From an uncultured Planctomycetia bacterium (lineage in GTDB: Bacteria > Omnitrophota > Gorgyraeia > Duberdicusellales > 4484-171): 64,000 nucleotides of DNA. The stretch lies in the NCBI GenBank assembly GCA_964489445.1, contig CAZAYU010000006.1, positions 53,518 through 117,517 of the forward strand, given 5' to 3'. Numbering within the stretch: position 1 is the stretch's first letter; every line of letters starts with the position of its first letter. The position numbers and the translations under genes are program-made. The notes beneath the pieces are model-generated. The model did no database searches. It had not been told where the DNA came from and saw only the letters and a list, made by a program, of their open reading frames with translations. This document shows positions 1-56,847 of this stretch, piece after piece.

Positions 1-912
1 CCGGGGATAAGCCGCAATCCGAGAGTCTTTACGGTAAAAATCAACAGCAGCATCCGGATTATAACGAGTAAATAATAGCGCCTCAACAGCAACGTCAGCT
101 AAAGCTTGGACAACATCAGGGGCATTCTCGTGAATTTCTTCACGGATAAAATCAAAACCGGTATTAAAAAAATACGGATAACCGGTATCTATTTTTCTCC
201 CTAATTTTTTCTGTTCAGAAAATGTTATGTGCGGATCCCAAAGAACTACTGCGTCAACACCTTTAGGTAAAAGCTGAGCATCGCGCATGCTCAAGCCGGC
301 AACCTTAAAGTCTTGACCACGAACTAAACCTTTGTGCTCAATCATAGCAGTAAGATAAAATTCTGCATACGACCCCAATGTCGTACCAATCACTGCCTGC
401 TTATCTTTCTGTTTAAGGTCTTCGGGAGATTGTATAGAAGAACGAGGTTTAACTAGCATGGCTATCTCATTATTAACACCGGTCAACGCATAAGCTTTAA
501 CCGGAGCACCTTTATCTACGGTAAGCCAAAAAGGAAAATCACCATAATGGGTAACTTGAGTTTGCCCACTCAAAAAAGCTTCAACAATCGTCGGCCCGCT
601 AAGAAAGCTTATGAATTTTACAGTAATACCTCTTTTTTCCAATAGCTTTAACTCTTTGATAATCGCATAACACGCTGAATACCCGGGAAGATCAGCAAAG
701 TAACCAATAGTTAGCGGCAGCCACCCTTTTGATTTTAGCCATTCTAACGACTCCTTACTTACTTGAGTGTACGGTAACGGCCAATTCCACTCAGTACTAT
801 CCTGTTTTGCAGGAATAGATTCAATTTGGTTGCCTTCCAATGCAGCTGTTGCTTCAACAGCATATCCGAGAATAATAGCAAAGACCAAATAAAAAATAAT
901 TCTTTTAGCCAT
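1..912 (-). CDS. ABC transporter substrate-binding protein (NitT/TauT/SsuA-NMT1 family), 5' end in window, 3' end beyond window start
   Basis: Minus-strand ORF open to the window edge with ATG at 910-912 (MAKRIIFYLVFAIILGYAVEATAAL signal peptide). The body resembles periplasmic nitrate/sulfonate/bicarbonate-binding proteins (…VIGTTLGSYAEFYL…GVDAVVLWDPH…). It is not in the ORF track because it is truncated. Confidence 0.6.
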   Translation of the reverse strand, partial: MAKRIIFYLVFAIILGYAVEATAALEGNQIESIPAKQDSTEWNWPLPYTQVSKESLEWLKSKGWLPLTIGYFADLPGYSACYAIIKELKLLEKRGITVKFISFLSGPTIVEAFLSGQTQVTHYGDFPFWLTVDKGAPVKAYALTGVNNEIAMLVKPRSSIQSPEDLKQKDKQAVIGTTLGSYAEFYLTAMIEHKGLVRGQDFKVAGLSMRDAQLLPKGVDAVVLWDPHITFSEQKKLGRKIDTGYPYFFNTGFDFIREEIHENAPDVVQALADVAVEALLFTRYNPDAAVDFYRKDSRIAAYPR

Positions 913-976: not shown

Positions 977-2215
977 TCAAATACGATAACCAAAGCACCC
1001 TCCCTGGCAAACAGTCTTGTCGCCAAGATTGGAAGATTTATTTTTTAATTGACGCTTATAGTTACTAAAATACTTACAAGTTTTACAGTCCTCCATAAGA
1101 GGCTGCAAACATAGCTGTTCTATAGGCGCCTTAAACTGCCGATCCATTTCTTGACGGGTAGTATCAGGTGTAATCTTCTTCCCTTTAATATGAACAACAG
1201 GACAAGGATAACAAGTTAAGTCTGGATTTACGGTTATCAAATTAGCATAGTCACCATTAACGTCAAAACAATCACACCGATAATCAAATAAAAACGGAGA
1301 TATGGAATTTAGAAATTTGATTTCTTCTTTATTGAACATGCACAAGAATAAAGGCCGATAAAAGAAAAATAAAATATTATTCACATAGGCATAAGAAGAA
1401 ATATCCATAATTTGCTTAGCTAGTTTTCTCATATTCTGTCTTAATTTCTGAGGAGTTAAAGTATTCTGATTCCTGGGCAAAGCTGTACTAAAACGCAAAA
1501 CTATCTGATCGGAACACTGCTTAATCGTATCAATGAACCCTTGCCAATTATCATCTTCACACTGAATAACCCATGACGCTACTAGAGGAATACCTTTATC
1601 GAGAGCCTCTGTAATATTTCGATAGAAAATGCTTTTCTTCTCTTGCGATAAATTATTCTGAGGATAACTAAAATTTATAGACTCTATTAAACACCTATCC
1701 AGTAGAGAGCTTGTTTCACGGTTATATAAACCATTAGTAGAAAGAGAAATGCTAAGCTTGTGCCGACGGGCTATCTCCAATACACTTTTAAATTCAGGGT
1801 ATACGGTAGGCTCTCCCCCTAAAAGCCGAAAACTTTCCCATCCTTGAGACTTTGCCCAATGAGCTAAAAACTCAAAATCAGCTAAAGACATATGCTGTTT
1901 AAACTCTTCTCGAGGAATCTGCGCATAACAAAAAGAACAATTTACATTGCAATAGTAAGTTACACAAACACGCAAAATCTTCTTATGTGTTTTGCTACTT
2001 TTATTCACCTGAATGCTTCTATCCAAAAGAAGTCTTTGTTTGTAACGTATGTGTACTTTATTTAACCACAGCAGAGAAGGAAACATAAGCCTTACCAACC
2101 TAATAATAATTATACACAGCAACGAGATAACTACCTGAAAACGATAAGCAGGCAGGTTAAATAATTCTTTAATTCTCGTAAATTCTGTTTTATAGATTAT
2201 CATTGCATTACCCAA
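977..2215 (-). CDS. Radical SAM/SPASM-domain protein, membrane-anchored (family A)
   Basis: CNVNCSFC (CxxxCxxC) followed by LGGEPTVYPEF, with a Cys-rich C-terminus (CYPCPVV…CKTCKYF…VCQGGCFGYRI). There is an N-terminal hydrophobic helix. The track start is TTG; ATG 12 nt downstream at 2203 is an alternative. Confidence 0.75.
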   Translation of the reverse strand: MGNAMIIYKTEFTRIKELFNLPAYRFQVVISLLCIIIIRLVRLMFPSLLWLNKVHIRYKQRLLLDRSIQVNKSSKTHKKILRVCVTYYCNVNCSFCYAQIPREEFKQHMSLADFEFLAHWAKSQGWESFRLLGGEPTVYPEFKSVLEIARRHKLSISLSTNGLYNRETSSLLDRCLIESINFSYPQNNLSQEKKSIFYRNITEALDKGIPLVASWVIQCEDDNWQGFIDTIKQCSDQIVLRFSTALPRNQNTLTPQKLRQNMRKLAKQIMDISSYAYVNNILFFFYRPLFLCMFNKEEIKFLNSISPFLFDYRCDCFDVNGDYANLITVNPDLTCYPCPVVHIKGKKITPDTTRQEMDRQFKAPIEQLCLQPLMEDCKTCKYFSNYKRQLKNKSSNLGDKTVCQGGCFGYRI

Positions 2216-2240
2216 TAATTTTTTTCTCTAGCCTATGGCT

Positions 2241-3473
2241 TCAACGATAACCAAAACATCCGCCTTGGCAAACTGTTTTATCCGCTAAATCAAAAGATTT
2301 TTGTTTTATTTGCCTTTGATACTTAGCAAAAAAATCGCAAGTTTTACATGAATCCATTAACGGCTGCGCAGACATTGTGCTTACCACATGTTTAAAGCGA
2401 TGTTCAATGTCACTTAAGTTAACCTTCGGGCCGATTTTTACACCACCAGTACGCACAACAGGACAGGGATAGCAACTTAAATCCGGATTAACAGTCAGCC
2501 TTAGCCCAGCATAGTTATCGCCTAAATTAAGAGGACAACGAGTATAGTACACGAAGGGACTTATTGAATCTAAGTAATCAAAATCGGCGTCAGACAGCAT
2601 GCAGCGCAAAAAAGGCCGGTAAAAATGGAATGTCACATGGTTTTTAAGAGCATAATTGGCAATATCTAAGGCTTGCCTTGACATTTTTTTAAAATTCTCC
2701 CTTACGCGTTCAAAGCTAGAACATTTCTCATTATTCGGCAGAACCATGCTAAAGCGTACCACAATATTAGGCCGGTACTTACTGGCTAAATCAATCACCT
2801 GGCGCCAATCTTCTTTGTCGGGATATATAACGCACGACATAATTAATTCCGTTTCTTTATCCATAGCATTCTTAAGATTTTGATGAAAAAGTTTCTTCTC
2901 ATCCCGGTTATTTTCATCTTGAGGATAACTAAAATTTATTGACCGCACTACTTTATCACCAAGGAAAAGACTTATTTCAGAATTAAATAAACCATTAGTC
3001 GAAAGATCAATATAAAATCCTTTTTTTTCTGTCATACTTAATATGCTTTTAAATTCAGGATGCACAGTCGGTTCACCACCCAAAAACCTGATCGCTTTCC
3101 ACCCCTGGAGTTTTGCCCAATTAAGCAAAAAATCAAAATCACTCAAAACCATATGGTGTTTAAATTCTTCTTGAAAGCTCCTAGAATAACAAAAAGAACA
3201 TTCCTTATTGCAACTATAAGTAATACAAACTCGTAAAGTTTCTAAATTAGCCAGTATTTTCGGAGCCCTAATTAACTTTTGCTTGTGTCGCGCATATGCT
3301 ATCTTTAAAGGTTCTGTAGAAATTTTACATTTTCTTAATACGGAGATTAAATAAGTTATTCCCACTGACAAAATAATGCGCGAGAAAGGCACACGCCTAG
3401 ATTCAGCCATTATTTTTATGAAAATAATTTTACTTATCAAATTCTCCCAATACTTTTTAAAAATACCTTTCAT
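2241..3473 (-). CDS. Radical SAM/SPASM-domain protein, tandem paralogue of the 977..2215 gene
   Basis: CNKECSFC followed by LGGEPTVHPEF, and the same C-terminal CQGGCFGYR motif. The N-terminal TM helix and ATG start are as in the neighbour. Confidence 0.75.
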   Translation of the reverse strand: MKGIFKKYWENLISKIIFIKIMAESRRVPFSRIILSVGITYLISVLRKCKISTEPLKIAYARHKQKLIRAPKILANLETLRVCITYSCNKECSFCYSRSFQEEFKHHMVLSDFDFLLNWAKLQGWKAIRFLGGEPTVHPEFKSILSMTEKKGFYIDLSTNGLFNSEISLFLGDKVVRSINFSYPQDENNRDEKKLFHQNLKNAMDKETELIMSCVIYPDKEDWRQVIDLASKYRPNIVVRFSMVLPNNEKCSSFERVRENFKKMSRQALDIANYALKNHVTFHFYRPFLRCMLSDADFDYLDSISPFVYYTRCPLNLGDNYAGLRLTVNPDLSCYPCPVVRTGGVKIGPKVNLSDIEHRFKHVVSTMSAQPLMDSCKTCDFFAKYQRQIKQKSFDLADKTVCQGGCFGYR

Positions 3474-3562
3474 TGCTCTCTAAAAAATGAAGTGCTTAGC
3501 AAAACTTTGAACTTTCAAATTATTTACTCCTACTCTTACTGTAAAATTTTATAAAGGTAGGT

Positions 3563-4663
3563 TTAAAAAACTAACTGTACCTGAAGAGCGACTTTATTCC
3601 TAGGCTTTGAGCCGTAATTCTCTTCCGCACTGCGAATAATGTAATTTAACTTTATATTATTTAAGGTTCCTTCTTTCAAAAACCAAGTTAGACCAACAGT
3701 AACCGTTTCGATGCCTGTATTGCTAATCTCTGAGTCCTTCTCGTACCAAGCGTAACGTACCGGAATTTCAATCCAGGATAAGGGTTTAAAACCAACCATC
3801 GCATACCACCCTCGAGGTTTCTGGGTGGGAAATTGAAACCTTTCTACACCGTTTACTTCTGAAAACCCTTCGTGCAACGCCTGCAAGTACTCATAAACAA
3901 CTCTAAATTTCCCGCTATTATATGCAATATCCACACCATAAGCATGTTCCGGCAAATTTCGCTCTTCGTTCCGACCTAAATCCGAAACAACATCTACCTG
4001 AGAATATCCGTGGAATCCGGAAACACCAAGTTCTAATCCCTCTAAAGGGCTAAGCCATAGCCGGCCGGTAAAATCTTTTTTCTCGTTATCGTCAAAATGA
4101 TCCAACCCGGCTCCAGTAGTAACAGAAAAAATATACCCCCAAGGAAATTTAGTTTCCAAAAAATTGCCCCATAACCATACTCCCTTATCATAACCATAAT
4201 TACCATTTCTACCCATACTCAACCATATTCCGTCAATGACTTCCGGTCGGAGAATAAACGGAATCTTCGGTAATATTTCTGTTCCAGAGCGAGAAAATCT
4301 GTACCACGATTGTCCTACCTTGATATTAACAGCAGAATTAACTTTTAGATTAAACCAAGCATCCAAAAGAGTCGCAGGGTCATTGTAAGTCAACCTTCCC
4401 CACTCTGACAAAAACATATAATCAATCCGGGAATTTAAATTACCCCTAACCCCCAATCTTACCCTAGCTATTTTTAAATCTTCGCCATGAGTTTTTCCGG
4501 CAGTATTATCATACTGGGCCCATAAATGGGTGAACCCGAAGGCATTAATCGTAAATTCATCTTCATTTTGATCTACTTCTTCAGAAAAACAAAAATTAGT
4601 GCTCGCCAAAATAAAAACAAAAACAACAGTTAATATTAAACTTGCACCGCGTTTTAAATTCAT
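3563..4663 (-). CDS. Outer-membrane beta-barrel protein (porin-like)
   Basis: Signal peptide MNLKRGASLILTVVFVFILAS. The body has alternating hydrophobic beta-strand patterns rich in aromatic/Gly residues and ends in the typical …ALQVQLVF C-terminal Phe. Confidence 0.55.
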   Translation of the reverse strand: MNLKRGASLILTVVFVFILASTNFCFSEEVDQNEDEFTINAFGFTHLWAQYDNTAGKTHGEDLKIARVRLGVRGNLNSRIDYMFLSEWGRLTYNDPATLLDAWFNLKVNSAVNIKVGQSWYRFSRSGTEILPKIPFILRPEVIDGIWLSMGRNGNYGYDKGVWLWGNFLETKFPWGYIFSVTTGAGLDHFDDNEKKDFTGRLWLSPLEGLELGVSGFHGYSQVDVVSDLGRNEERNLPEHAYGVDIAYNSGKFRVVYEYLQALHEGFSEVNGVERFQFPTQKPRGWYAMVGFKPLSWIEIPVRYAWYEKDSEISNTGIETVTVGLTWFLKEGTLNNIKLNYIIRSAEENYGSKPRNKVALQVQLVF

Positions 4664-4710
4664 CTCACTTATTTATATTCCCAATAGATAATTACCCGAT
4701 TAACTATCAC

Positions 4711-7491
4711 TCACGAAAAACAAGAACTCTGATTGTGCCATCTAAGATTCAAGCACCCCCCCTGACAAACTCTTTGGCTAAAAAAATCCTTACTTTTTTG
4801 AGAATTCTTATCATTTAAACTATTCATAAAAAGATCATGCGCCAGGCACTCATTACATGATTCAATCAAACAATTAGAAATTAGCTGTGCTGTATTTTTC
4901 TTTAAAAAAGCATTTAACTCTTTCCTATTTTTGAATTTCAATATATTCTCGTTCTTCATAAAAACTGAATAACAAAATGAAAAACTTAAATCAGGATTTA
5001 CAGTAAGCATATACGTATACCGGCCTTTATACCCTATCGGACACCTAGTGTATGCCACATAAGGAGAAATTTCCTTAAGCTTCTTCCACTCTTTATCCGA
5101 GAACATGCACACAGGAATGGGGCGGTAGTTATAAAACGGTATCCTCAACCTTACACATTCCTTCTGAATCTGCATTATTTGACGAAAGAAATGTTGACTA
5201 TAATCAAATATATTGCACCCAAGATTTTGCTTCGATGAATCCGGCAATGCCAAACTTGTCCTCACAAACGTTGGTTTGTAATATTCTACATCGAAAAACA
5301 ATTTTCTCAAGTCTTCTTTGTCCTTACCTATTATATAAGAGAATCCAAAACTTATATTTCTTGCTTTCCACTCCTTAAGATTCCGATCAAAAAATCGCTG
5401 CTGGCTAGAATTTGCAACCTGGCGGGCATTATAATTTACAATAACATTTTCATGCCAAAAACTTTTTACATTTGAAATAATCCGGCTGGGAAAAACATTA
5501 TTTGTTGCTATTGTTATAAACATTTTATGTTTATAACACAATTTAAGCATATCACTAAAATCTGGATGAAGCGTCGGTTCTCCTCCCAAAAAAACCATTC
5601 TATTCCATTTGTTTTTCTTAGCCCAAATTAATAGGCGATAGAAATCATTTAGTGTCATATCATTTGGTATTTTTTCCTTAAAATCTCGTGCATAGCAATA
5701 TTTGCAAGATAAATTACATTTATACGTTGTGCATACTTTCAATAAGGAATCTTGCATCCGAGGCAACCAGTCAGGTTTTCTTGTGTGCACATGGTAATGT
5801 AGTTGGCTCCAAGCGTCCCTTCTTGACCATCTTTTACTCGAAAAGATTAGCAATTGATAGAAAACAGTCAAATAAGATTTAAAATAAAAAAAAGAATAAC
5901 CTAGCAATCTTCCAGATAACCATAACCTCCTGACTTTATTAATAATTCTGTGAATTATTTTCTTTTGGGAATTTATTGTAATAACGGCTATTTCAATCGT
6001 TCTTTGACGAATACGTTTAAAATTCAATTTGAATGATACAATAAATAGATACAAATGATGCCATACTGAATGCAACACCATAAACTTATACTTATCAAGA
6101 TGCCTGATTGGTTTTTTACATATTGCTTTTATGCGAATAGCTTTCATTTTCTTAACGATCTTCTTTCTTAGCTTGTCATTATTCTGACCAAATAAAAATC
6201 CAGGAACAGAGTAGTTGTTATTTTCAAACTTAAAATCATTATTAAATTTATCCTTGTATATTTCAGAAAGCGTGCTACCCGGCAAAAAGTTTGCAAACAA
6301 AAACCATGCTCTATCCAATCCTAAACTTTCCGCAAAAGATAATGTTTCATTAATCTCTGCTTCCGTTTCCCCCGGAAACCCCAAAATAAAAAAGCTATTG
6401 GTATCTATACCAATTTTCCTTGCTACTTTGACTATTTCTTTTACCTGTATTAGGTTCACAGGCTTTCCAATAAAGGTCTCAAGTATCCGTTTGTTGGCGC
6501 TTTCGATACCTAAAGTTAACTCATAGCAACCACTTTCTTTCATTAATTCCAATAATTTTTCATCCAGTGTCCAAGCTGCAACTCCGTTAGGCATATTCCA
6601 ATGTATATTAAATTTCCGTTTAATCATGCCTTCAAACAACTCCACTGTTCTTTTTTTATCTTGTGTTAGATTATCATCAATAAATTGTACTTCTCTTATC
6701 GAAAACTTTTTAATTAATTCTTCAATCTCGTTTAATACATTTTCTGTTGTCCGAACCCGGTATCTTCTTCCCCAATAATTACTTGATGAACAAAATTGGC
6801 AATCCTCTAAACAACCTCGTGAGGTTATCAAGGTTGTATTGCGTTTAGTTTTAGAAATGTGCCCGGGAGGCCTGTTGATGCTATAATATTCTTCCATTGG
6901 TATTAACTGGCGAGCAGGAAAAGAAATATCATCTAAACACCGAATAAAATTATTCTTTTTATTTACAATAATTTCTTTTCCGTTCCGCCAAGCTATTCCA
7001 TCTAAATCGTAAACCGAACGGCTTAAATTGAGCCGAGATAACAGTTCTTTGAAAGAACTTTCTCCTTCACCAAGCACAATGAAATCTATATCAGTATCCC
7101 GCATGCATTCTCGAGCAAGAAAAGTAGGATGGCTGCCGCCGATAACAGTAACAATCTCTTTATTAAGAAATTTTACCTCTTTGCAAATACTTTGAGCAGC
7201 TATGAATTGGCTTGAAAATAAGCAGCTAATACCGACTACATCCGGAGTGAATATTCTAATTTCTTCTTTAATCTTTCCCATCTTTAAACCATGACGATAA
7301 CGTTTCTCTCCTGCTAAAACTCGATGTTTAAATCCTTCAACTACACAATCTAAGATTTTTACATTAAAATCATCTTTAATCGCGCTGGCAATATAAGCTA
7401 GTCCTAGGGGAGGAGTAACAACTTCGTAACTTCCTGTCGGCAATAAGAATGGTGGAAAAATCAAAAGTACATTTTTTATTTTTTTACTCAT
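4711..7491 (-). CDS. Fusion protein: cobalamin-binding (class B) radical SAM domain + family-A SPASM radical SAM domain
   Basis: N-terminal B12-binding-like domain (…VIGGSHPTF…) then radical SAM TSRGCLEDCQFC. The C-terminal ~400 aa is paralogous to ORFs 977/2241, including the hydrophobic linker, CTTYKCNLSCKYCYA, LGGEPTLHPDF and the terminal VCQGGC. Confidence 0.75.
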   Translation of the reverse strand: MSKKIKNVLLIFPPFLLPTGSYEVVTPPLGLAYIASAIKDDFNVKILDCVVEGFKHRVLAGEKRYRHGLKMGKIKEEIRIFTPDVVGISCLFSSQFIAAQSICKEVKFLNKEIVTVIGGSHPTFLARECMRDTDIDFIVLGEGESSFKELLSRLNLSRSVYDLDGIAWRNGKEIIVNKKNNFIRCLDDISFPARQLIPMEEYYSINRPPGHISKTKRNTTLITSRGCLEDCQFCSSSNYWGRRYRVRTTENVLNEIEELIKKFSIREVQFIDDNLTQDKKRTVELFEGMIKRKFNIHWNMPNGVAAWTLDEKLLELMKESGCYELTLGIESANKRILETFIGKPVNLIQVKEIVKVARKIGIDTNSFFILGFPGETEAEINETLSFAESLGLDRAWFLFANFLPGSTLSEIYKDKFNNDFKFENNNYSVPGFLFGQNNDKLRKKIVKKMKAIRIKAICKKPIRHLDKYKFMVLHSVWHHLYLFIVSFKLNFKRIRQRTIEIAVITINSQKKIIHRIINKVRRLWLSGRLLGYSFFYFKSYLTVFYQLLIFSSKRWSRRDAWSQLHYHVHTRKPDWLPRMQDSLLKVCTTYKCNLSCKYCYARDFKEKIPNDMTLNDFYRLLIWAKKNKWNRMVFLGGEPTLHPDFSDMLKLCYKHKMFITIATNNVFPSRIISNVKSFWHENVIVNYNARQVANSSQQRFFDRNLKEWKARNISFGFSYIIGKDKEDLRKLFFDVEYYKPTFVRTSLALPDSSKQNLGCNIFDYSQHFFRQIMQIQKECVRLRIPFYNYRPIPVCMFSDKEWKKLKEISPYVAYTRCPIGYKGRYTYMLTVNPDLSFSFCYSVFMKNENILKFKNRKELNAFLKKNTAQLISNCLIESCNECLAHDLFMNSLNDKNSQKSKDFFSQRVCQGGCLNLRWHNQSSCFS

Positions 7492-7523
7492 TTAAAAATA
7501 ATTTATTACTTGGCTTGTGCCGA

Positions 7524-8768
7524 TTACCATACCTGATTCCGAGTCACATCAAATAGAGTCTCTTTCTTTCTGATTAATTCCACTTTTTTTGATGAATTTA
7601 AAAAATAAACAGCACTTCTCGGCCGAGAAAATTGATTAGCATACGGGATAGAATAAGCTCCAACACCAAAAATTACCAAGATATCCCCCCTTTCTATGCT
7701 AGGACTCCAAACATTCAGAAAAAGCTTATCGAAAGAATTAACTGACGCACTATAAATATTTACCTTCTCCATCGGGCTTTGCTTTACTTTATTCGCAATT
7801 AAAAATCCTCTATTTTTAAAAAGCGGACGGTATCCAAGATCATTCATTAAAATATCCGTATACACATTTCTTCCTTTCTTCTCAACAATTTTTCCAACCA
7901 AAATAGCACTATTACCCATTATCGACCTTCCTGGCTCAAGAGAAATATTTAGATTTAATCTTGTTTTTCTGAAATTAGCATCATAACCCCTCTCAATCGC
8001 TTTAATAAAATGCTCCAGACTTACAGGAAATTTAGAAAAAAACGGAAAAGCATGTTGTATTCCTTGGGAAGGAAATCCTCCGCCAAGATTTATTTCTCTA
8101 ATGTCAACACCCCGAACTTTGAATTGCTTGGCTAAACTAAATAGGTTTTTTAATGATTTTTGGTAATAGGCCGGCTTAACAAAAGAAAAAGTAAGATGTG
8201 CCAATAGCCCCTTAATGTCAACAAAAGAGTACTTATCGAAATTATTTAAAAGATATCTTACTTCCTGTGAACCTAGCCCATAGCTCCTTTGGCCCGTAGT
8301 TAGAAAAATATTTCTTAAATCATACGAACTTACCTGAGGATCTATACGTAAACCAATGTTAACTTTTAGCAATTGCCCTTTGGCAATCTTATTCAAACGG
8401 TTCAATTCATCTATTGAATCAATATTAATCAATTGGATATTTTTTTCTACACATTTTTTTAAGAAAGCATCGGATTTATTCGTACCGTCTACAATAATAT
8501 CAAAGTGGGGAAATTGTGCTTTTTCCGCTAAAAACATATCTAAGTCTCCAGAAACCTCAGCCCCTAAGCCCATCTTTCTTATAGTCTGGAGCACTCTTGA
8601 TTCGTAATTTGTTTTAAGGGAATAATAAATCTTAGTATTAGGTTTACTTTTCGTAAGACGAAGCAGAATGCTACAATTCTTCGTAATTATGTTTTCGGAA
8701 ATTACAAAAAATGGTGTAGCGGTTCTTTTTGAAAAATCAACAATATCCAAACCTTCGAAATAATACAT
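7524..8768 (-). CDS. PLP-dependent decarboxylase, Orn/DAP/Arg decarboxylase (fold-III, LysA-like) family
   Basis: YSLKTN (PLP-Lys motif YAxKAN-like), GGGFPS and EPGRSIMG motifs, with TIM-barrel plus beta-sandwich domain order. Confidence 0.65.
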   Translation of the reverse strand: MYYFEGLDIVDFSKRTATPFFVISENIITKNCSILLRLTKSKPNTKIYYSLKTNYESRVLQTIRKMGLGAEVSGDLDMFLAEKAQFPHFDIIVDGTNKSDAFLKKCVEKNIQLINIDSIDELNRLNKIAKGQLLKVNIGLRIDPQVSSYDLRNIFLTTGQRSYGLGSQEVRYLLNNFDKYSFVDIKGLLAHLTFSFVKPAYYQKSLKNLFSLAKQFKVRGVDIREINLGGGFPSQGIQHAFPFFSKFPVSLEHFIKAIERGYDANFRKTRLNLNISLEPGRSIMGNSAILVGKIVEKKGRNVYTDILMNDLGYRPLFKNRGFLIANKVKQSPMEKVNIYSASVNSFDKLFLNVWSPSIERGDILVIFGVGAYSIPYANQFSRPRSAVYFLNSSKKVELIRKKETLFDVTRNQVW

Positions 8769-8891
8769 TTTTTATTTTAAAACCGGCTTTCTCTTGTTGC
8801 TAAATTTCATCTAAGGTTAACTACTAAAATGCTCCCACCATGAATAAAATCCTACACTCACAATATGTTTGGCTTCGACGCTAATGTACCT

Positions 8892-9905
8892 TTAAATAGC
8901 ATTATCAATGTACCGCTTTCGAAACTGCTGATTTCTCATAACACAATCAGAAGAATCGATTACTTTATATAGTAGATGACCATTCATCTTCCGCCAAAGA
9001 ATAACTAACGAATTTTCCCGGACATTACCAAAACGAAGCGGAACAAAATTACACGGTTGAATATCACCATAAGGTGAAACATAAAACAGCTTCTTTAGAA
9101 CCGCATTGCATCGTGAATAATAACTACAGATTGCTTCCAGATGAACGTAACAAGGATCAAGAAGACCATTGATATACTTTTTTTCCTGCTGCGACAACAT
9201 CATCTCGCAACTATTTAGCCACTTTCCTCCAGGAATAGCAAAAAGCAACACCACCCCTTTCGCTTTTAATTCTCTTGCCAGCTTAATGATCGATGGTATT
9301 TCATCTTTCCTGCAGATATTTTCTTTTGAAACGCACACAGAAACAAAAACAGTAATATTTTCTTCAACACACATCGAAATTGCTTTTTTTGCTTTTTCAA
9401 ACAAGCCAATACGCTTTCGGAATTTATCGTGAATTTTCGGATATGAACTATCAATACTGATATTTATAAATGTAAGACCCCGATTTTTTAATTGCCGGAT
9501 CTTTTCCCGCGTTAATAATAACGCATTAGTGCTAACAGCAGTAATCAGCCCTTTTTTTGCCGTATACTCAACTAACTCACTTATGTCTTCCCTTAATAAC
9601 GGTTCGCCACCGGTAAAATTAACAAAATAAACACCTAATTTATAAGCTTGAAAAATCACCTTTATTACTTCTTCTGTGCTTAATTCTTTCTTGCTACTAT
9701 TCAAACTCCTTTCAATCCCGCAGTGCACACAGTCCAATTGGCATCTATCAGTAACCCCTAAAATAAGCGTATTCGGAGCACTCATCCATGGTAGATTATT
9801 CATGAGTTTACGCAATATAATATTGGTTTTTCTAAAAAAAGAGAACGGTCTCAAAAATACATCATACTGATACTTTTTTTGATTTAACCAATTAGCAATA
9901 TTCAT
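8892..9905 (-). CDS. Radical SAM protein with SPASM/twitch-like C-terminus
   Basis: GVTDRCQLDCVHCGI followed by FTGGEPLLRED, with C-terminal Cys cluster CSYYSRCNAV…PCNFVP. Confidence 0.75.
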   Translation of the reverse strand: MNIANWLNQKKYQYDVFLRPFSFFRKTNIILRKLMNNLPWMSAPNTLILGVTDRCQLDCVHCGIERSLNSSKKELSTEEVIKVIFQAYKLGVYFVNFTGGEPLLREDISELVEYTAKKGLITAVSTNALLLTREKIRQLKNRGLTFINISIDSSYPKIHDKFRKRIGLFEKAKKAISMCVEENITVFVSVCVSKENICRKDEIPSIIKLARELKAKGVVLLFAIPGGKWLNSCEMMLSQQEKKYINGLLDPCYVHLEAICSYYSRCNAVLKKLFYVSPYGDIQPCNFVPLRFGNVRENSLVILWRKMNGHLLYKVIDSSDCVMRNQQFRKRYIDNAI

Positions 9906-9967
9906 AAAATGCTATTATCCAAATTCTTCTTTAAATTTTAGAGGTAACCCGATATTATTTAAATATG

Positions 9968-10774
9968 CTAATTTTGCTTAACAGATTTTACGACAATAAA
10001 CCATCCTGTTAAGTCCTTGCTTTTTTTTTGCCTTCCCAACCACTTAAAGAACAAAACACACCTTTGAGCAATCCTGTCTACAATATCATCACTTATGAAT
10101 TTTCTTAATAAACACAATATGCTGTTAACTGGGCTAACTATATGAACAATCACTTCTACCTCCTGAATATCCAACCCGACTTCCTTAAATATTCTTCTAA
10201 TTGAATTCAAATGATAAAAACGACTCAAATATGGCTTAAATTTAAAAATCTCTTGTAACTTAAGCATTGAATAAAAATTAATGTTACTCTTATTGTTAAG
10301 AGCGATTATCATACACCCATCAGGGCTAAGTACTCGTTTTAATTCCCAGAGCGATTTTTTTAAATCATCGGAAACTACAAAATGATCCAAGGTAGAAGTA
10401 GATAGAATAAGACTGAATGCATCTTCTTTAAAAGGCAAGTTTCTTACATCAGCAGTTAAATAGCGATGCTTGAATCCTTTACCATCCATTTTATTATTTG
10501 CAATTTTGGTTATATCTTCAGAAACGTCTAAAGCAAAAATTTCCATTTCTCTGTTTTTTAAGGAAAATAACACTTGATCCGCACCAAATGCTTCCTCACA
10601 AAGATCAGTTTTAAGCAATCTTACCTGTTTTAAATTACTGCTCCATTTTTTGACTAAGCATATGAATTCGTTTGATTTATACTCTCCTAGCACGGGATAA
10701 ATACCCAGACACTTTGACTTATTCTCAGCAAGCTTATCCCAAAACTTCTTTGTACTAATTTGTTTTCCAGACAT
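9968..10774 (-). CDS. Class I SAM-dependent methyltransferase (putative)
   Basis: Divergent motif I, post-I acidic ALDVSEDI, motif II DVRNLPFKEDAFSLILS, motif III LKRVLSPDGCMIIA. Confidence 0.5.
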   Translation of the reverse strand: MSGKQISTKKFWDKLAENKSKCLGIYPVLGEYKSNEFICLVKKWSSNLKQVRLLKTDLCEEAFGADQVLFSLKNREMEIFALDVSEDITKIANNKMDGKGFKHRYLTADVRNLPFKEDAFSLILSTSTLDHFVVSDDLKKSLWELKRVLSPDGCMIIALNNKSNINFYSMLKLQEIFKFKPYLSRFYHLNSIRRIFKEVGLDIQEVEVIVHIVSPVNSILCLLRKFISDDIVDRIAQRCVLFFKWLGRQKKSKDLTGWFIVVKSVKQN

Positions 10775-10864
10775 ATCTAAAAATTACCAACATTCCTATT
10801 TATCGGCCAAAAACAATACTTGAATTGCAAAAAACATTTACTGCTGCACAACAGAGTAAGCCCC

Positions 10865-11947
10865 TCACGCACTGCAAAGTGCATTCTTTACCTTATTAAA
10901 CATTTCTCGATAGCCCTCTTTGTAGCACCCTCTAAATATTAAACAATCCACCATTTTACACCGCCGCATTTCTCTAAATGTTTGAGCTGCCCTCTCTGAT
11001 TTCCAAATATCCTTTAATGAATCGTTAGCTAGGTTACCAATGGGTTCCCGAAATAGACAAACGCGAAGATTGCCATCCTGTTTTATGAATATGTGGCTGG
11101 CAATAATTTCACAATATTTTTTCTTAAGCTGCGCCGAGAAATGATAATAAGCTTTGAGGCGCGCAAACTGTTGTCTAGAGTTAACTATTCCCTTGTTGTA
11201 TTTTTTTCTTCTTACTACCTCACTGATAACATAATCTAGTTTTTTTAAATCCTGGGGGAACAAATAATGTTCCTTGGGAAAACTGAGTTTTTCCGTACCA
11301 CCTGTCATGTTGATGAGCCCCTGAAAGGAAATCTGTATTTTATGCCTATAAGCAAAATTACAGAGATCTAAAATTTCATCTAAATTGTCATCCATAATTG
11401 TGGTATTGATTTGAATCGGAACTTTTCCTTTCAAATGGTCTATCGTCTCCATCACTTTATGGTATGTTCCCTTTATCCCCCTTAGTTTATCGTGCGTCTG
11501 AGGCTGAAAACCATCAAGAGAAATGTTTATCAATGCCGGGTTATTCTTCCTTAATTCCTTGGCTAAACTCTCGGTCATTATTGTTCCATTCGTGGTTATT
11601 AACGGGCTGATATCATTTTGTGAACAAAAATTGATTAATTCCAAAAGGTCTCCTCTACAAAACGGCTCACCTCCATAAAAACGTAAAAAATAGGGACCAA
11701 TGTAGCTTTTTATATCTAAAATAATATTCTTCCATTGCTCAGTTGAAAGTTCTTTGAAGCCAGACATTTTCCATTCCGGACACTGCTGACATTTTAAATT
11801 ACATTTTAGAGTCAACCTTAAATCTATTAAATTAGGCGGCAAATAAAGATTTTTGCCGGATAACGATGAAATTTTTCGAAAAAATTCATTTTTTAAAAAT
11901 CTTACCCCAGAATTAAAAATGATTGTTGACTTTATTCTCATACCCAT
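10865..11947 (-). CDS. Radical SAM/SPASM-domain protein
   Basis: LTLKCNLKCQQCPEW followed by FYGGEPFCRGD, with Cys-rich C-terminus (CEIIASH…CLFRE…CKMVDCLIFRGCYKEG). Confidence 0.75.
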   Translation of the reverse strand: MGMRIKSTIIFNSGVRFLKNEFFRKISSLSGKNLYLPPNLIDLRLTLKCNLKCQQCPEWKMSGFKELSTEQWKNIILDIKSYIGPYFLRFYGGEPFCRGDLLELINFCSQNDISPLITTNGTIMTESLAKELRKNNPALINISLDGFQPQTHDKLRGIKGTYHKVMETIDHLKGKVPIQINTTIMDDNLDEILDLCNFAYRHKIQISFQGLINMTGGTEKLSFPKEHYLFPQDLKKLDYVISEVVRRKKYNKGIVNSRQQFARLKAYYHFSAQLKKKYCEIIASHIFIKQDGNLRVCLFREPIGNLANDSLKDIWKSERAAQTFREMRRCKMVDCLIFRGCYKEGYREMFNKVKNALCSA

Positions 11948-12022
11948 ATAGCAATTTACTTTTAAGCTACATATTTAACAATTGAAAAAGCACAAAAAAT
12001 ATCTCAAAATACACTAGGCATA

Positions 12023-12934
12023 TTACCAAAAGGATAAAAAATTATCTTTTAACGAGTAAGTAGAGTAAAACCCCCAAAGCTCTATCCGCTTAGTGCTATA
12101 GACTCGATCTTCATTAAAAAATTTTAGCTTTCTTCCGATAAACGGAAGACCTAATAGAAATCGATTTAAGAAACCAGGAATATTTAACGGTGGACCAACA
12201 TTGAGCGCTTTGCTAAAAACATTAAAAAGCTCATAAGCCGTAAACACTTCTTTATCGGCAATAAAAAACGAACCTTTAAGAAATTCTTTTTTACTTAAAG
12301 AAAAAATCATTGCTTCAACAACATTTTTCACAAAAATCATGTGAAGTTTTCTTTTTCCGTTATCAACTAATGGTAAAATTCGATGTTTTAGGCCAAACAA
12401 TATTCGTCCTGCCATATGTGAAGCACCTTTTCCGTAGACCATGCAAGGACGGAGAATAACAGCTCTTAAACCTTTTTTGCGATATTCACAGACTTTTTTC
12501 TCGCCTTCTATTTTGGACTCACCATAAATACTTGTCGCTCGGAATGGTAAATCTTCTGTTAGCGGAATTTGAGAGTTTCCACTTACTACAGCTACCGAGC
12601 TTAAATAAACTACTCTTTCAACACCTAATCTTAAAGCCAACAAACAAATATTTTCGGTTCCCAGCACATTTACACAATAAAACGAAGAATGTTTTCTACT
12701 ATCCACACAACCCGCACAATGAAATATAACATCAATCTTATAATTCAAAACTTGGCTAAGGGTATCATTTCGGGTAATATCCGCATAGATAAGTTCTACC
12801 CCAAATTTCTTTATATTCTTTGCTTTATTAGAATTCCGTACCAAACAAAAAAGAGAATGTTTACGGCACTCAGTTAGTCTTTCTACTAAATGCCGACCAA
12901 TAAATCCGCTAGCCCCGGTAATTAAAATATTCAT
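12023..12934 (-). CDS. NAD-dependent sugar epimerase/dehydratase (extended SDR)
   Basis: N-terminal Rossmann ILITGASGFIG and catalytic YGESK (YxxxK). Confidence 0.75.
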   Translation of the reverse strand: MNILITGASGFIGRHLVERLTECRKHSLFCLVRNSNKAKNIKKFGVELIYADITRNDTLSQVLNYKIDVIFHCAGCVDSRKHSSFYCVNVLGTENICLLALRLGVERVVYLSSVAVVSGNSQIPLTEDLPFRATSIYGESKIEGEKKVCEYRKKGLRAVILRPCMVYGKGASHMAGRILFGLKHRILPLVDNGKRKLHMIFVKNVVEAMIFSLSKKEFLKGSFFIADKEVFTAYELFNVFSKALNVGPPLNIPGFLNRFLLGLPFIGRKLKFFNEDRVYSTKRIELWGFYSTYSLKDNFLSFW

Positions 12935-13043
12935 TTTGCCCTAATTTCTTTGCACTAACTAACTGCATAGACATTATTTTTATTACTCACTCAGGCAAAA
13001 CATATTTTAAAAATATATACTCCTCAAAGTACTTTTCTGCCTA

Positions 13044-14207
13044 TTAACTAATAACCAATTCGTAAACTTTTCTTGTTTTTTCAGCCTCAAATTGGGAATC
13101 AAACTTTTTTACACTGAAAAACGCATTATTCCCAAGATATTCCCTGAGTTGCTTATTACATATTAACTTGCTTATTGCACTAGCTAAGGAATCTACATCC
13201 GCAAGTTTGGTTAGCAAGCCATTTTCACCATCTTTAACTAATTCTTTTGCGCAAGAAAGATTAGTAAAAACAACCGCTTTCCCAGCAGCCATTGCTTCTA
13301 AGAGCACTAGGGGTAACCCTTCGTATAAAGATGGCAAAACAAAAATATCACAAATATTTAAAAAATCTTTTATATGCGCCGGAGCAACTGGGCCAATAAT
13401 TACCACTTTATCCTCAAGCTTTAATAATTTTATTTGGATCCTTATATTTTTTAACTCACCACAATCCGGACCAACAATAAACAGCTTTATATTACTGTGT
13501 TTGCCTTGATCAATAACTTTCTTAAAAGCATAAATAAGATATGTGATGCCTTTTCTGGGCAATATACGAATTACGGTCAATATTTTCACCTCATCACCTA
13601 GACCATGCATTCTCTTAAAGCAATCATTTAATTCTAAATTTTGATAATCTCTAACCCTAATACAATTCTCTTGGATTGTTGTCTTATTCTCAATATTCTT
13701 ATTTCGCATAATCTTCAGGATCTCTTCCTGCTGAACATTTGATGGACAAAATATCTGGCTAGCCCTTTTAATTATCCGTCTTCCCACAAAATAATCATAA
13801 AACATCTTCAAAAATTTCAAAACCGGATTTCTAAACTGATAGCCATACACTGTTAATAAAAAAGGAATCCCTGTCCTCTTTGAATACAAATAAACAATAT
13901 CTGTACTATAAGAGCCATACTCGAAGGCATGAATTAAATCAGGATTTTCTTTCTTTAAAACGGAAAAAAACTTAGGGATAATTCGGTAAATCTGTAAGGG
14001 ATTACTAGAAACCTTGAGTGAAATTGTTGGCAAAGTTAGTAATGTGTACCCTTTTAGGCTGCGTCGTTGTATTTCTTTCCCTTTCCCCCCGGCAATTACT
14101 ACTACATCATCAGTTTCTGAAAGTGCCGATGCTAGATTATGGACATGTTTCTCTCGACCACCAATAAAATCCGGATAAGCTGTGTGAGTTGTAAGCGCTA
14201 TTTTCAT
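13044..14207 (-). CDS. Glycosyltransferase family 4 (GT-B, group 1)
   Basis: C-terminal EGLPLVLLEAMAAGKAVVFT…GENGLL motif (E-x7-E). Confidence 0.75.
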   Translation of the reverse strand: MKIALTTHTAYPDFIGGREKHVHNLASALSETDDVVVIAGGKGKEIQRRSLKGYTLLTLPTISLKVSSNPLQIYRIIPKFFSVLKKENPDLIHAFEYGSYSTDIVYLYSKRTGIPFLLTVYGYQFRNPVLKFLKMFYDYFVGRRIIKRASQIFCPSNVQQEEILKIMRNKNIENKTTIQENCIRVRDYQNLELNDCFKRMHGLGDEVKILTVIRILPRKGITYLIYAFKKVIDQGKHSNIKLFIVGPDCGELKNIRIQIKLLKLEDKVVIIGPVAPAHIKDFLNICDIFVLPSLYEGLPLVLLEAMAAGKAVVFTNLSCAKELVKDGENGLLTKLADVDSLASAISKLICNKQLREYLGNNAFFSVKKFDSQFEAEKTRKVYELVIS

Positions 14208-16388: not shown

Positions 16389-17495
16389 CTATTTCTTCAA
16401 ATCTAAATGTTTTTCAATTTCTTCTAAAAAAGCGGTTAATTTGTGTAAGTTTTGGTTAACATCCTGAGAATCGCAATTGATTTGTTGTAAAGTTTGATCA
16501 ACTATCTGTGTATTGTTAATAATCTTTCCTAATAAATCAACTACTTCTAAAAACCTTTCCTTAAGTAACCCTAAATCACTAGTCGTTATCTCTTTCGCCT
16601 CTAAAAAATTATCATTCAATGATCTTAATTCACTATTAACGGTCTCATGTTTTATAGATAACTCCTGAAATAGACGAATGATCTCAAAAGAATTACCATT
16701 AATAGTTCTTACATCCTCATGGAAAAGCCCTAAAAGCTGTTTTAATTCTTCATTCTTGTTTGCAAAAACATGCAATAAATTATTTATTTCGACAAAGGCC
16801 TCTTTAAAGGACTTTAAATCAGCTTCCACAGACTCTTGGAACGCCTTATCTTGTTTAACCGTTTGGTCTAAAAAGTTGTTCGTACTCAACGATACGTCAT
16901 TTAGAGACTTTAAACCAGCTCCCACAGACTCTTGGAATATTTTGTCCTGTTCAACTGTCTGGCTTAAGGAGTTATCTACGCTTAGGGATACGTCATTTAG
17001 AGACTTTAAACCAGCTCCCACAGACTCTTGGAATATCTTATCCTGTTCAACTGTCTGGCTTAAGGAGTTATCTACGCTTAGGGATACGTCATTTAGAGAC
17101 TTTAAATTGGCTCCCACAGACTTTTGGAATATTTTGTCCTGTTCAGCTGTCTGGCTTAAGGAGTTATTTACGCTTAGGGATACGTCATTTAGAGACTTTA
17201 AACCAGCCCCCACAGACTCTTGGAATATCTTATCCTGTTTATTCATTTGATTTAAGGAGCTAACTACTATGCTTAAACTTTTCACAATTGAAACATTGTA
17301 TATTTTTATATTAAAAATAAAATCACCGATATTAGCTAAAAATCTAAACACAACAGCAACAACCGCCCCAGTTAATAAAACAACACTATACTTCTCCCAA
17401 GAGCCGGCACACCAGATTCCTCCAAGTATAGCGCCAATAAATAATGCACTCCAAGAAAAAGCTATCAACGCCCAACCTATGAATGTACGTTGCAT
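16389..17495 (-). CDS. Membrane-anchored coiled-coil repeat protein (2 N-terminal TM helices + ~5 x 32-aa tandem repeats)
   Basis: N-terminus WALIAFSWSALFIGAILGGIW… followed by repeats (E)QDKIFQESVGAGLKSLNDVSLSVDNSLSQTV, encoded by a 96-bp DNA tandem array. A further heptad-rich alpha-helical tail follows. Confidence 0.6.
   Translation of the reverse strand: MQRTFIGWALIAFSWSALFIGAILGGIWCAGSWEKYSVVLLTGAVVAVVFRFLANIGDFIFNIKIYNVSIVKSLSIVVSSLNQMNKQDKIFQESVGAGLKSLNDVSLSVNNSLSQTAEQDKIFQKSVGANLKSLNDVSLSVDNSLSQTVEQDKIFQESVGAGLKSLNDVSLSVDNSLSQTVEQDKIFQESVGAGLKSLNDVSLSTNNFLDQTVKQDKAFQESVEADLKSFKEAFVEINNLLHVFANKNEELKQLLGLFHEDVRTINGNSFEIIRLFQELSIKHETVNSELRSLNDNFLEAKEITTSDLGLLKERFLEVVDLLGKIINNTQIVDQTLQQINCDSQDVNQNLHKLTAFLEEIEKHLDLKK
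16780..17255. repeat. Tandem 96-bp repeat array (~5 copies, near-identical) inside the coiled-coil gene
   Basis: The motif gatacgtcatttagagactttaaaccagctcccacagactcttggaatat recurs at 16891, 16987, 17083 and 17179, with a degenerate copy near 16795. Confidence 0.85.
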
Positions 17496-54107: not shown

Positions 54108-54111
54108 TTTT

Positions 54112-56841: not shown

Positions 56842-56847
56842 ACTATT

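Follow-up and report, generated by a model that had tools for sequence, protein, structure and literature searches.

The 64,000-nucleotide stretch of DNA analysed here (the window) encodes three paralogues of one radical SAM (rSAM) family, which we call family A, all on the minus strand, and one of these is fused behind a class-B (B12-binding) rSAM enzyme. The best overall explanation, to which we assign a probability of about 0.55, is that the trio is part of a tailoring cassette and performs consecutive chemistry on a non-peptide metabolite.

Three paralogues of a rare radical SAM family

The two standalone copies are A1 (977..2215, minus strand), with 412 aa from a TTG start (408 aa in the public gene call), and A2 (2241..3473, minus strand), with 410 aa (389 aa in the public gene call, which takes an internal Met as start). 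A1 carries CNVNCSFC, LGGEPTVYPEF and, at its terminus, VCQGGCFGYRI, while the corresponding motifs of A2 are CNKECSFC, LGGEPTVHPEF and a terminal VCQGGCFGYR. Pairwise BLASTP gives 44% identity across 386 aa (E 7e-124), and the first-pass annotation, which had called the pair paralogues, is thus borne out, with all of these motifs in place. It had also recognised a third member in the C-terminal ~400 aa of the 926-aa protein encoded at 4711..7491 (minus strand). This region is indeed homologous to A1 and A2 over residues ~509-924, with 30% identity to A1 (fusion aa 578-917, E 3e-46) and 34% to A2 (aa 563-917, E 8e-57), and it contains VCTTYKCNLSCKYCYA at aa 586-601 and VCQGGC at aa 908-913. A profile HMM made from 25 members of the family gives 529 bits for A2, 522 for A1 and 514 for the fusion, of which it matches residues 509-924, whereas all other rSAM proteins of the window stay at or below 82 bits, the score of the runner-up. 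A1 and A2 belong to subfamily I, and the fused copy to subfamily II.

Each copy consists of an all-helical N-extension of ~85 aa, an rSAM core with CX3CX2C and GGE motifs, and a divergent SPASM-like C-terminal domain. In A1 the CX3CX2C motif lies at aa 89-96 and the auxiliary conserved cysteines at positions 292, 314, 338, 377, 380, 403 and 407. These seven are 94-100% conserved among 34 full-length family-A members, a number that would suffice for two auxiliary [4Fe-4S] clusters. The AF2 model of A2 (pLDDT 84.3, pTM 0.86) shows three N-terminal helices followed by the rSAM core and the Cys-rich C-terminal domain, and its nearest solved folds are the SPASM/twitch enzymes SuiB, anSMEcpe (TM 0.54/0.59), BlsE, PqqE and SkfB, and also CteB; Foldseek probability is 1.0, with TM ~0.5-0.6, for anSMEcpe, SuiB and BlsE. 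The earlier designation of these proteins as SPASM enzymes therefore stands as regards the conserved cysteines, the order of domains and the fold, but not as regards the Pfam SPASM model (PF13186), which gives no match to them even at E<=10. The stretch TVNPDLSxYPC resembles the SPASM hairpin motif, but the Gly of the SPASM GX4C motif is substituted (PDLSxYPC) and the cysteines are spaced CX2C, ~22 residues, CX3C instead of the canonical CX2CX5CX3C. The helical N-extension and the CQGGC C-terminus are peculiar to family A in this comparison.

Family A is a rare, uncharacterised rSAM family. When 1.84 billion representatives were searched exhaustively with the family profile, ~27 full-profile clusters came up, from Omnitrophota/Elusimicrobiota MAGs, and among NCBIfam and Pfam families none beyond the generic Radical_SAM reaches its cut-off for family A or its nearest outgroup relatives.

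The N-terminal extension

The first-pass annotation took the N-terminal helix for a membrane anchor. The hydrophobic segments of A1 and A2 comprise just 13-14 residues free of D/E/K/R, and across the family the helix holds conserved Arg/Asp/Lys residues, with longest D/E/K/R-free runs of 6-18 residues and Kyte-Doolittle maxima of 0.1 to 2.4. In the fusion, the segment ahead of the second CX3CX2C motif reaches at best 1.04, and no TM-like stretch separates the two rSAM cores, as no 19-residue window there exceeds 1.2. What had been described as a hydrophobic linker is the normal basic tail of the B12 enzyme, followed by the normal helical N-extension of family A. Judging from these sequences, family-A proteins probably lack a TM-helix anchor and are soluble or, at most, peripheral to the membrane. 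Since the anchor is unsupported, the proposal that a membrane tether points to a lipid-linked substrate (polyprenyl-P-sugar or glycolipid) loses its premise, which leaves the idea weakly supported.

A class-B radical SAM enzyme fused to a family-A protein

In the 926-aa protein, as read from its sequence, a complete class-B rSAM enzyme of ~500 aa is joined head to tail to a complete family-A protein. The N-module (5998..7491, minus strand; aa 1-498) has a B12-binding domain at aa 21-150 (Pfam, 76.1 bits; cut-off 32.1) and a Pfam Radical_SAM core at aa 222-387, with CX3CX2C at aa 227-234. Residues 3-498 of the fusion align to residues 2-501 of a standalone 501-aa homologue, including the basic, amphipathic C-tail found in standalone homologues of ~500 aa, in agreement with the earlier claim that the class-B enzyme is complete. 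The C-module (4711..5967, minus strand; aa 509-926) keeps the ~85-aa helical N-extension, a CX3CX2C motif at aa 592-599, all seven auxiliary cysteines and the tail VCQGGCLNLRWHNQSSCFS.

The N-module shares its B12-binding domain, rSAM core and usual length with class-B rSAM methyltransferases (Sden_1168/PhpK P-methyltransferases, TokK, BchE/HpnJ-like), to which the fusion adds a whole second rSAM enzyme at the C-terminus. Of the NCBIfam models, Sden_1168 matches the N-module best (E 1e-83), but the module lies outside that family (281.8 bits against a cut-off of 575); among solved structures it is closest in sequence to 9ccb, AprD4 (6fd2) and TokK. The module is P0048-like and 46% identical to its closest relatives, which are standalone proteins of ~510 aa, while the B12-rSAMs adjoining family A at other loci are 27-31% identical and of a different subfamily. 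The fusion, taken as a "Rosetta stone", therefore joins enzyme classes, not orthologues.

The fusion is unique among the ~27 family clusters, being the sole family-A member longer than ~440 aa in the profile search, and a second whole rSAM enzyme at the C-terminus was not seen in the best 120 of 196 B12-rSAM relatives. The recovered copies are all DNA-identical; they thus stand for one clonal population and provide no evolutionary evidence that selection keeps the fused state. These observations would suit an artefact or a decaying, functionally meaningless gene, in which an error of sequencing or assembly, or a very recent mutation, joined two adjacent genes, but we consider this hardly probable at all. 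Fifteen contigs, drawn from several samples and assembled by three pipelines (Logan, JGI and ENA/MEGAHIT), carry the identical, uninterrupted ORF, and 5 of them are 100% DNA-identical to the window. This makes a one-off read-through unlikely and supports the original reading of a real fusion. The junction has no long homopolymer run, and the catalytic motifs and conserved cysteines of both modules are all intact. The window also encodes three further double-rSAM proteins, one of them a second B12-rSAM::rSAM, and long multi-enzyme fusion proteins with rSAM domains have been reported to be frequent in Omnitrophota (10.64898/2026.06.07.730766).

A conserved gene cassette

The predicted genes around the trio form a conserved tailoring cassette, which comprises a GT4 glycosyltransferase, two canonical SPASM rSAMs, a methyltransferase and/or a PLP decarboxylase, one or more B12-rSAMs, two to three family-A genes, an anion-porin-like barrel and an SsuA-type ABC importer. 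In the window, all on the minus strand, these are the 5' part of a periplasmic substrate-binding protein of SsuA/NMT1 type, with a signal peptide (1..912, extending past the window edge); a Porin_O_P-like outer-membrane barrel of 366 aa (3563..4663); a PLP-dependent decarboxylase of the Orn/DAP/Arg decarboxylase fold directly upstream of the fusion (7524..8768; 198 bits with the lysA model, below its cut-off of 297.9); two canonical rSAM/SPASM enzymes of 337 aa (8892..9905) and 360 aa (10865..11947); a class-I SAM methyltransferase of 268 aa (9968..10774); and a GT4 glycosyltransferase of 387 aa (13044..14207). Intergenic gaps from 977 to 14207 are merely 25-124 bp. The wider window contains a Wzm/Wzt-like ABC exporter, GT2/GT4/PMT_2 glycosyltransferases, DegT and an epimerase.

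The syntenic locus L014 has in common with the window the GT4 (49% identical), both SPASM rSAMs (43% for the 337-aa enzyme, 45% for the 360-aa enzyme), the porin in the same position (56%) and the substrate-binding protein of an ABC importer (68%), whose subunits best match sulfonate/taurine/nitrate-class models. It has in addition two standalone family A-II genes, two standalone B12-rSAMs and a CapK-like adenylating enzyme. In L017 the order is GT4 (54% identical), B12-rSAM, methyltransferase (43% identical) and, directly downstream, family A-II; in L023 it is B12-rSAM, family A-II, B12-rSAM and PLP decarboxylase, the last being 26% identical to that of the window and two genes from family A. 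L015 has tandem family A-II and A-I genes, and in L008, L011 and L016 family A directly adjoins a B12-rSAM. No glycosyltransferase is found in the flanks of L008, L011, L013 or L023.

Family A is standalone wherever it occurs outside the window, usually with a B12-rSAM within two genes (8 of 12 standalone genes at eight other loci, by our count). These neighbourhoods back the link between the B12-dependent and the family-A step that had been drawn from the fusion, and make a functional coupling of its two halves plausible. rSAM genes are so dense at these loci that chance would be expected to yield some family-A/B12-rSAM adjacency.

Possible functions

An imported anionic compound (organosulfonate, sulfate ester or phosphonate) could be the substrate, taken up by the porin and the SsuA-type importer and processed by O2-independent C-H/C-S/C-P chemistry of the rSAM and B12-rSAM enzymes for assimilation or salvage. 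The conserved barrel and binding protein and the importer class in L014 agree with this, as do the MetA-like outer-membrane barrel, two sulfonate/taurine/nitrate-type importers and sulfatase of L008, the two sulfatases and anSME-like maturase of L011, and the match of the N-module to the Sden_1168 P-methyltransferase model. We nevertheless regard it as unlikely, because all transporter and P-methyltransferase scores fall below curated cut-offs, we recognised neither a PEP mutase nor a C-P lyase nor a desulfonation enzyme, and the GT4, methyltransferase, decarboxylase and surrounding glycan genes appear biosynthetic. We know of no earlier case in which a SPASM rSAM takes part in the catabolism of sulfonates or phosphonates. 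Family A and the B12-rSAMs might instead cross-link and C-methylate a ribosomal precursor peptide, in a proteusin-like manner. SuiB, SkfB, CteB and PqqE are among the nearest solved folds, several B12-rSAMs of the window best match the RiPP C-methyltransferase models TIGR03975 and ApyD, and small or Cys-rich ORFs occur in L007 and L008. However, these model scores are all below cut-off, we recognised neither a leader peptidase nor a C39-type exporter, and the conserved partners are a GT4, a porin and an importer. The N-extension is formed by helices only, lacking an RRE-type beta-sheet in the A2 model, and the short intergenic gaps leave no space for a precursor gene; both argue against a peptide substrate, and we consider RiPP maturation very unlikely.

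Lipid-tail tailoring is suggested by analogy with archaeal GMGT lipid biosynthesis: the helical N-terminal "cap" of family A would bind hydrophobic chains and forge C-C links or rings in a membrane lipid or glycolipid. The B12-rSAM would add methyl groups to those chains, with the fusion linking the two reactions. In the cited descriptions (PMC11186832, PMC11214058), Gms exceeds 420 aa, has an all-helix N-terminal domain, rSAM core, bridging region and SPASM domain with two auxiliary clusters, has SuiB as its nearest solved structure, as does family A, and both works with and is gene-clustered with the B12-rSAM methylase Gmm. Family A thus resembles Gms, as described there, in layout, size and gene clustering; its N-extension is amphipathic and partly hydrophobic, and L008 has AMP-binding::B12-rSAM fusions besides the CapK-like enzyme of L014. 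But the NCBIfam Tes model gives only ~28 bits for A1 and A2 (cut-off 450), neither the cassette nor the window showed a recognisable acyltransferase, ACP, Tes or Mss gene, and the N-extension has three helices against six in Gms. The cited passages describe no fusion of Gms with Gmm. Gms/Gmm are archaeal, whereas family A comes from other taxa, with no tetraether or membrane-spanning-lipid genes recognised nearby, and we consider this analogy quite unlikely to hold.

In the preferred reading, consecutive tailoring of a non-peptide metabolite, each rSAM domain would cleave SAM reductively, and the resulting 5'-deoxyadenosyl radical would abstract an unactivated hydrogen. The B12 module would then donate a methyl group from methylcobalamin, and the family-A module, with its auxiliary clusters, would act on the same metabolite to complete its oxidation, epimerisation or C-C/C-X coupling. 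The fusion would secure 1:1 stoichiometry and hand-over between both steps, a role that FbiC has for CofG and CofH. FbiC (FO synthase) likewise unites in one polypeptide two complete, consecutive rSAM enzymes that are separate elsewhere and serve one pathway intermediate, and this fusion is widespread in bacteria (PMC11917521), whereas we found ours in one clonal population. FbiC lacks both a B12-binding and a SPASM-like domain, and its domain families are unrelated to those here. The glycan-type context, with a GT4 orthologue bordering the cassette in two further lineages, is compatible with a sugar or glycoconjugate substrate, and our tentative guess, inferred only, is that the substrate is a sugar-containing intermediate from the surface-glycan-type pathway that the rest of the window encodes. 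The sugar reading leaves the importer and porin of the cassette unexplained; the conservation of both suits uptake better than biosynthesis.

Three copies of a rare radical SAM family

The reading frames at 977–2215 (A1, 412 aa), 2241–3473 (A2, 410 aa) and 4711–7491 (the fusion, 926 aa), all on the minus strand, were recovered in the translations of the window together with the motifs that the first-pass annotation had quoted for them. A1 and A2 are radical SAM (rSAM) proteins of one family, here called family A, and the fusion joins a B12-rSAM to a further family-A copy, A3. By pairwise BLASTP, A1 and A2 are 44% identical across 386 aa (E = 7e-124), and the fusion aligns with A1 over its residues 578–917 (30%, E = 3e-46) and with A2 over residues 563–917 (34%, E = 8e-57). 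When a family-A HMM built from 25 members was run on the rSAM proteins of the window, A2, A1 and the fusion scored 529, 522 and 514 bits, and the best remaining protein 82 bits. The whole profile, N-terminal extension included, is covered by residues 509–924 of the fusion. These identities and HMM scores bear out the proposed homology of the three domains: A1, A2 and the C-terminal half of the fusion are paralogues of a bounded, rare family. All three reach the Pfam Radical_SAM cut-off of 29.5 bits (PF04055; A1 48.2, A2 45.4, fusion 129.7 bits over two stretches), with CX3CX2C motifs at residue 89 of A1, 88 of A2, and 227 and 592 of the fusion. A GGEPT motif is found in the family-A copies.

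Searching 5.8 billion clusters by word index gave 46 matches, all of 250–450 aa, and their named sources are Omnitrophica/Omnitrophota and Elusimicrobia/Elusimicrobiota MAGs. When 1.84 billion representatives were searched exhaustively with the HMMER profile, about 27 proteins matched it over its whole length with at least 273 bits; scores then drop to those of a wider group that covers only profile positions ~75–380. Standalone and fused versions were compared in this set, as the first reading had proposed, and the fusion is both the top full-profile match and the only such member to exceed ~440 aa. Of 185,579 species-representative genomes, just two MAGs, one from Elusimicrobiota and one from Omnitrophota, have matches of at least 30% identity. 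The neighbour-joining tree separates two subfamilies, A-I with A1 and A2, and A-II with the fused copy. A1 groups more closely with P0012 and P0010, two other proteins of the tree, than with A2, and the A1/A2 duplication is hence old. NCBIfam cut-offs are reached by neither family A, the N-terminal half of the fusion nor the outgroup relatives. The broader relatives that match only the core of the profile carry varied fusions (proteins P0199, P0207, P0205, P0275 and P0223), with partners that include a second rSAM/SPASM enzyme, Peptidase_MA_2, HEAT repeats, a GT9 heptosyltransferase and an HPr-kinase-like domain.

Architecture and authenticity of the fusion

The N-terminal half of the fusion has a B12-binding domain at residues 21–150 (PF02310, 76.1 bits against a cut-off of 32.1), followed by the first rSAM core (PF04055) at residues 222–387. 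Its closest relatives, among the best 120 of 196 listed, are standalone B12-rSAMs of ~500–524 aa with at most 47% identity, and residues 3–498 match residues 2–501 of a 501-aa homologue end to end. This half is thus a full-length class-B (cobalamin-binding) rSAM, with N-terminal B12-binding domain and then rSAM core. Pfam, the end-to-end alignment and the family HMM agree with the original description of a third family-A copy behind a complete class-B enzyme; one complete family-A copy is fused to one complete class-B rSAM. Since the B12-rSAM alignment extends to residue 498 and the family-A profile starts at 509, there is no dedicated linker. The "hydrophobic linker" described previously is the usual basic amphipathic C-terminal tail of this B12-rSAM family, in which Kyte-Doolittle maxima are 0.2–1.4, followed by the usual N-terminal extension of family A. 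The best NCBIfam match of the N-terminal half is the Sden_1168 P-methyltransferase model (NF038361), at 281.8 bits under a cut-off of 575; the PhpK P-methyltransferase model (TIGR04479) gives 123.8 bits, under its cut-off of 600.

Logan, JGI and ENA assemblies of several samples encode the identical 926-aa product on 15 contigs, and the five contigs that were compared match the window at 100% identity over 6–9 kb. This recurrence across three assembly sources argues against a one-off assembly read-through of two genes, a reservation raised in the first-pass annotation, and an artefactual reading frame is in our judgement extremely improbable. The compared copies are identical in DNA and therefore represent a single clonal population, without variation for a selection test. 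The junction has an AGGAGG..ATG and stops, all out of frame, which were considered as a relic ribosome-binding site and stop codon and were given no weight, because such signals are expected in AT-rich DNA.

When the full-length fusion was aligned with family A using MAFFT, the family-A rSAM cores were misplaced onto the rSAM core of the N-terminal half, so that C227, C231 and C234 appeared "invariant" and identity to the C-terminal half fell to ~20%. Such an alignment would mislead an AF2 model of the full-length fusion.

A SPASM-like domain and an amphipathic helix

The canonical seven-cysteine SPASM motif is CX9-15GX4C ... CX2CX5CX3C ... C. Family A has seven cysteines beyond CX3CX2C, conserved at 94–100% and kept in all three window copies (292, 314, 338, 377, 380, 403 and 407 in A1), with spacings that depart from the canonical motif (C314-X23-C338; C377-X2-C380-X22-C403-X3-C407). 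The Pfam SPASM domain (PF13186) gave no match to full-length A1, A2 or the fusion at E ≤ 0.01, nor, with the threshold relaxed to E ≤ 10, to the last ~160 aa of any copy, while it does match the canonical SPASM rSAMs at 8892, 10865, 18835 and 21203 of the same window. For both reasons we call the domain SPASM-like. The AF2 model of A2 (pLDDT 84.3, pTM 0.86) has three helices at the N-terminus, followed by the rSAM core and a C-terminal domain. The solved folds nearest to it by Foldseek are SuiB, anSMEcpe, BlsE, PqqE, SkfB and CteB, with E values of 3e-9 to 1e-6 and TM scores of ~0.5–0.6 for the first four. As modelled, the family-A protein as a whole is thus predicted to have a SPASM/twitch-like fold.

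Family A had been described as membrane-anchored, which does not agree with the hydropathy of the family. The Kyte-Doolittle 19-mer maximum is 2.43 in A1, 1.78 in A2 and only 1.04 in the fused copy, and ranges from 0.1 to 2.4 among the relatives. The aligned N-terminal helix carries conserved Arg/Asp/Lys, and its longest run free of D/E/K/R is 6–18 residues (13–14 in A1 and A2). By these two measures, no hydrophobic span of at least ~19 residues is conserved across the family, so a transmembrane anchor is not characteristic of family A. Peripheral membrane association through the amphipathic helix is possible.

Conserved partners of family A

The JGI metagenome contig L014 is syntenic with the window, and has orthologues of its GT4 glycosyltransferase (49% identical), of both canonical SPASM rSAMs (45% and 43%) and of its Porin_O_P barrel (56%). 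At positions 1–912 (minus strand) the window holds the 5' part of an SsuA/NMT1-type substrate-binding protein gene with a signal peptide, which runs off the window edge. Its product is 68% identical to the substrate-binding protein that L014 has in the corresponding position, part of a NitT/TauT-class ABC importer, which makes the importer a conserved member of an otherwise biosynthetic-looking cassette. L014 contains in addition two standalone A-II genes, two standalone B12-rSAMs, a CapK-like ligase and the complete importer.

Three related loci are found in one Elusimicrobiota MAG: L017 has GT4 (54%), a B12-rSAM, an MTase (43%) and an A-II gene; L023 has a B12-rSAM, an A-II gene, another B12-rSAM and a PLP decarboxylase; and L015 has A-II and A-I genes in tandem. 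Family A directly adjoins a B12-rSAM in three further loci (L008, L011 and L016), and for 8 of 12 standalone family-A genes a B12-rSAM lies at most two genes away. Family A is thus conservedly co-located with B12-rSAMs and a specific partner set. These neighbouring B12-rSAMs are just 27–31% identical to the N-terminal half of the fusion. That half has its nearest standalone relatives in other surroundings, namely arrays of B12-rSAM paralogues accompanied by an alpha/beta hydrolase, YfhO, PMT_2 and TPR proteins.

In Elusimicrobia bacterium GWA2_61_42 (L008/L009), two fusions of ~1,050 aa (1206–4343 and 6113–9316), each joining an AMP-binding (adenylating) domain to a B12-rSAM, adjoin a family-A gene, so that unusual rSAM fusions recur in cassettes of this type. 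The flanks of the family-A loci examined contain no nif-like gene, and a relation to the Nif-paralogue rSAM clusters of Elusimicrobia (10.1101/765248) was set aside. A link to the selenocysteine-assisted organometallic (SAO) system was also rejected: SaoP/SaoA are the best NCBIfam models for the importer, below cut-off, and the SAO source preprint places these subunits in the general nitrate/sulfonate/taurine ABC group, so there is no specific link.

An rSAM array within a surface-glycan-type cluster

Between 977 and 53242 the window has 21 CX3CX2C motifs in 17 proteins, and none of its rSAM proteins reaches an NCBIfam cut-off. Three further proteins, all on the minus strand, contain two rSAM stretches: an rSAM/SPASM::rSAM of 694 aa (44900–46984), an rSAM::rSAM of 666 aa (47001–49001) and a 991-aa protein with a B12-binding domain (49096–52071), a second B12-rSAM::rSAM whose C-terminal half is not family A. 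The neighbouring protein at 43718–44866 (minus) has a second CX3CX2C at residue 355.

The rSAM genes are interleaved with those for GT2, GT4 and PMT_2 glycosyltransferases, DegT, an epimerase, AsnB, YdjC, a carbamoyltransferase, GDSL proteins and a Wzm/Wzt-like ABC exporter. The exporter set at 53160–62160 comprises a 264-aa ABC-2 permease and an ABC ATPase that is unusually long at 909 aa and has its ATPase domain at the N-terminus. It is grouped with GT2, GT4, a DegT aminotransferase and an LPG_synthase_TM protein. The exporter and the glycosyltransferases place the rSAM array inside a surface-glycan-type cluster. Such an extreme rSAM density in an envelope-glycan-type cluster belongs here to an uncultured, PVC-related lineage.

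Proposed chemistry

Auxiliary-cluster and B12-dependent rSAM enzymes perform some of the most difficult C–H functionalisations in biology, and to our knowledge most families of both have no known substrate. SPASM-type rSAMs, class-B rSAMs and rSAM–rSAM fusions such as FbiC are already known; no description of family A, of the cassette or of this particular fusion was found in the family libraries and literature searched. In the mechanism that we propose, each rSAM domain would generate a 5'-deoxyadenosyl radical, the B12 module would methylate the substrate, and the family-A module would act on the same non-peptide intermediate in a redox or coupling step that draws on two auxiliary clusters. 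The fusion would couple consecutive steps, as FbiC, the precedent for an rSAM–rSAM fusion, does by joining CofG and CofH (PMC11917521). As a natural covalent fusion, it nominates a specific pair of B12-rSAM and SPASM-like enzymes as consecutive.

With the array lying among glycosyltransferases and an exporter, we favour a sugar-containing intermediate as the substrate, with a probability of roughly 0.35. The cassette also keeps its importer, which would suit an imported anionic compound, a substrate that we hold to be unlikely. Modification of a lipid tail would be analogous to Gms/Gmm (PMC11186832, PMC11214058), and we consider it quite unlikely. The first-pass annotation had pointed to a lipid-linked substrate on the premise of a membrane tether, which fails on hydropathy and conserved charges. 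A peptide is very unlikely: the N-terminal extension of family A is predicted to form three helices without strands, and hence to lack an RRE/PqqD-like domain, and between 977 and 14207 there is no ORF-sized gap for a precursor gene.

Extending the sugar reading to the whole window, its ~20 rSAM domains and four or five double-rSAM fusions might form a radical "assembly line" tailoring a polyprenyl- or nucleotide-linked surface glycan or glycolipid ahead of its export by the Wzm/Wzt-type system, with family A and its fused B12 partner as a dedicated two-step module. Many C-methylations, epimerisations and C–C/C–X couplings would then precede export. We found no described precedent for a bacterial envelope polymer with radical tailoring on such a scale, and hold this extension to be speculative and rather unlikely.

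The family-A trio with its fusion is a genuine lead, clearly delimited and amenable to experiment. A sharply bounded, very rare family with conserved partners makes a defined cassette open to heterologous expression. If the product of this cassette were identified, several "dark" rSAM families would gain a function together, and anaerobic chemistry of glycans, lipids or metabolites that is new might come to light in Omnitrophota/Elusimicrobiota.

Other features of the window

No tRNA, riboswitch or other Rfam family was found in the 64-kb window. All ORFs of at least 150 aa with a Pfam match are on the minus strand; on the plus strand there are just two shadow ORFs, both unannotated. Every 2-kb bin has a negative GC skew, and GC content ranges from 28 to 38%. 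A 368-aa protein with a hydrophobic N-terminus (16389–17495) contains an array of 4.5 tandem units of 96 bp (32 aa) at 16810–17239, with 88% matching, and a 257-aa protein between two B12-rSAM genes (27020–27793) has a similar layout of a TM segment plus Ser/Leu-rich repeats; neither has a meaningful Pfam match. Two tandem GDSL/SGNH-hydrolase paralogues of 411 and 412 aa (40168–41403 and 41458–42696), with identical domain coordinates, adjoin a TPR protein and the carbamoyltransferase/YdjC/AsnB block.
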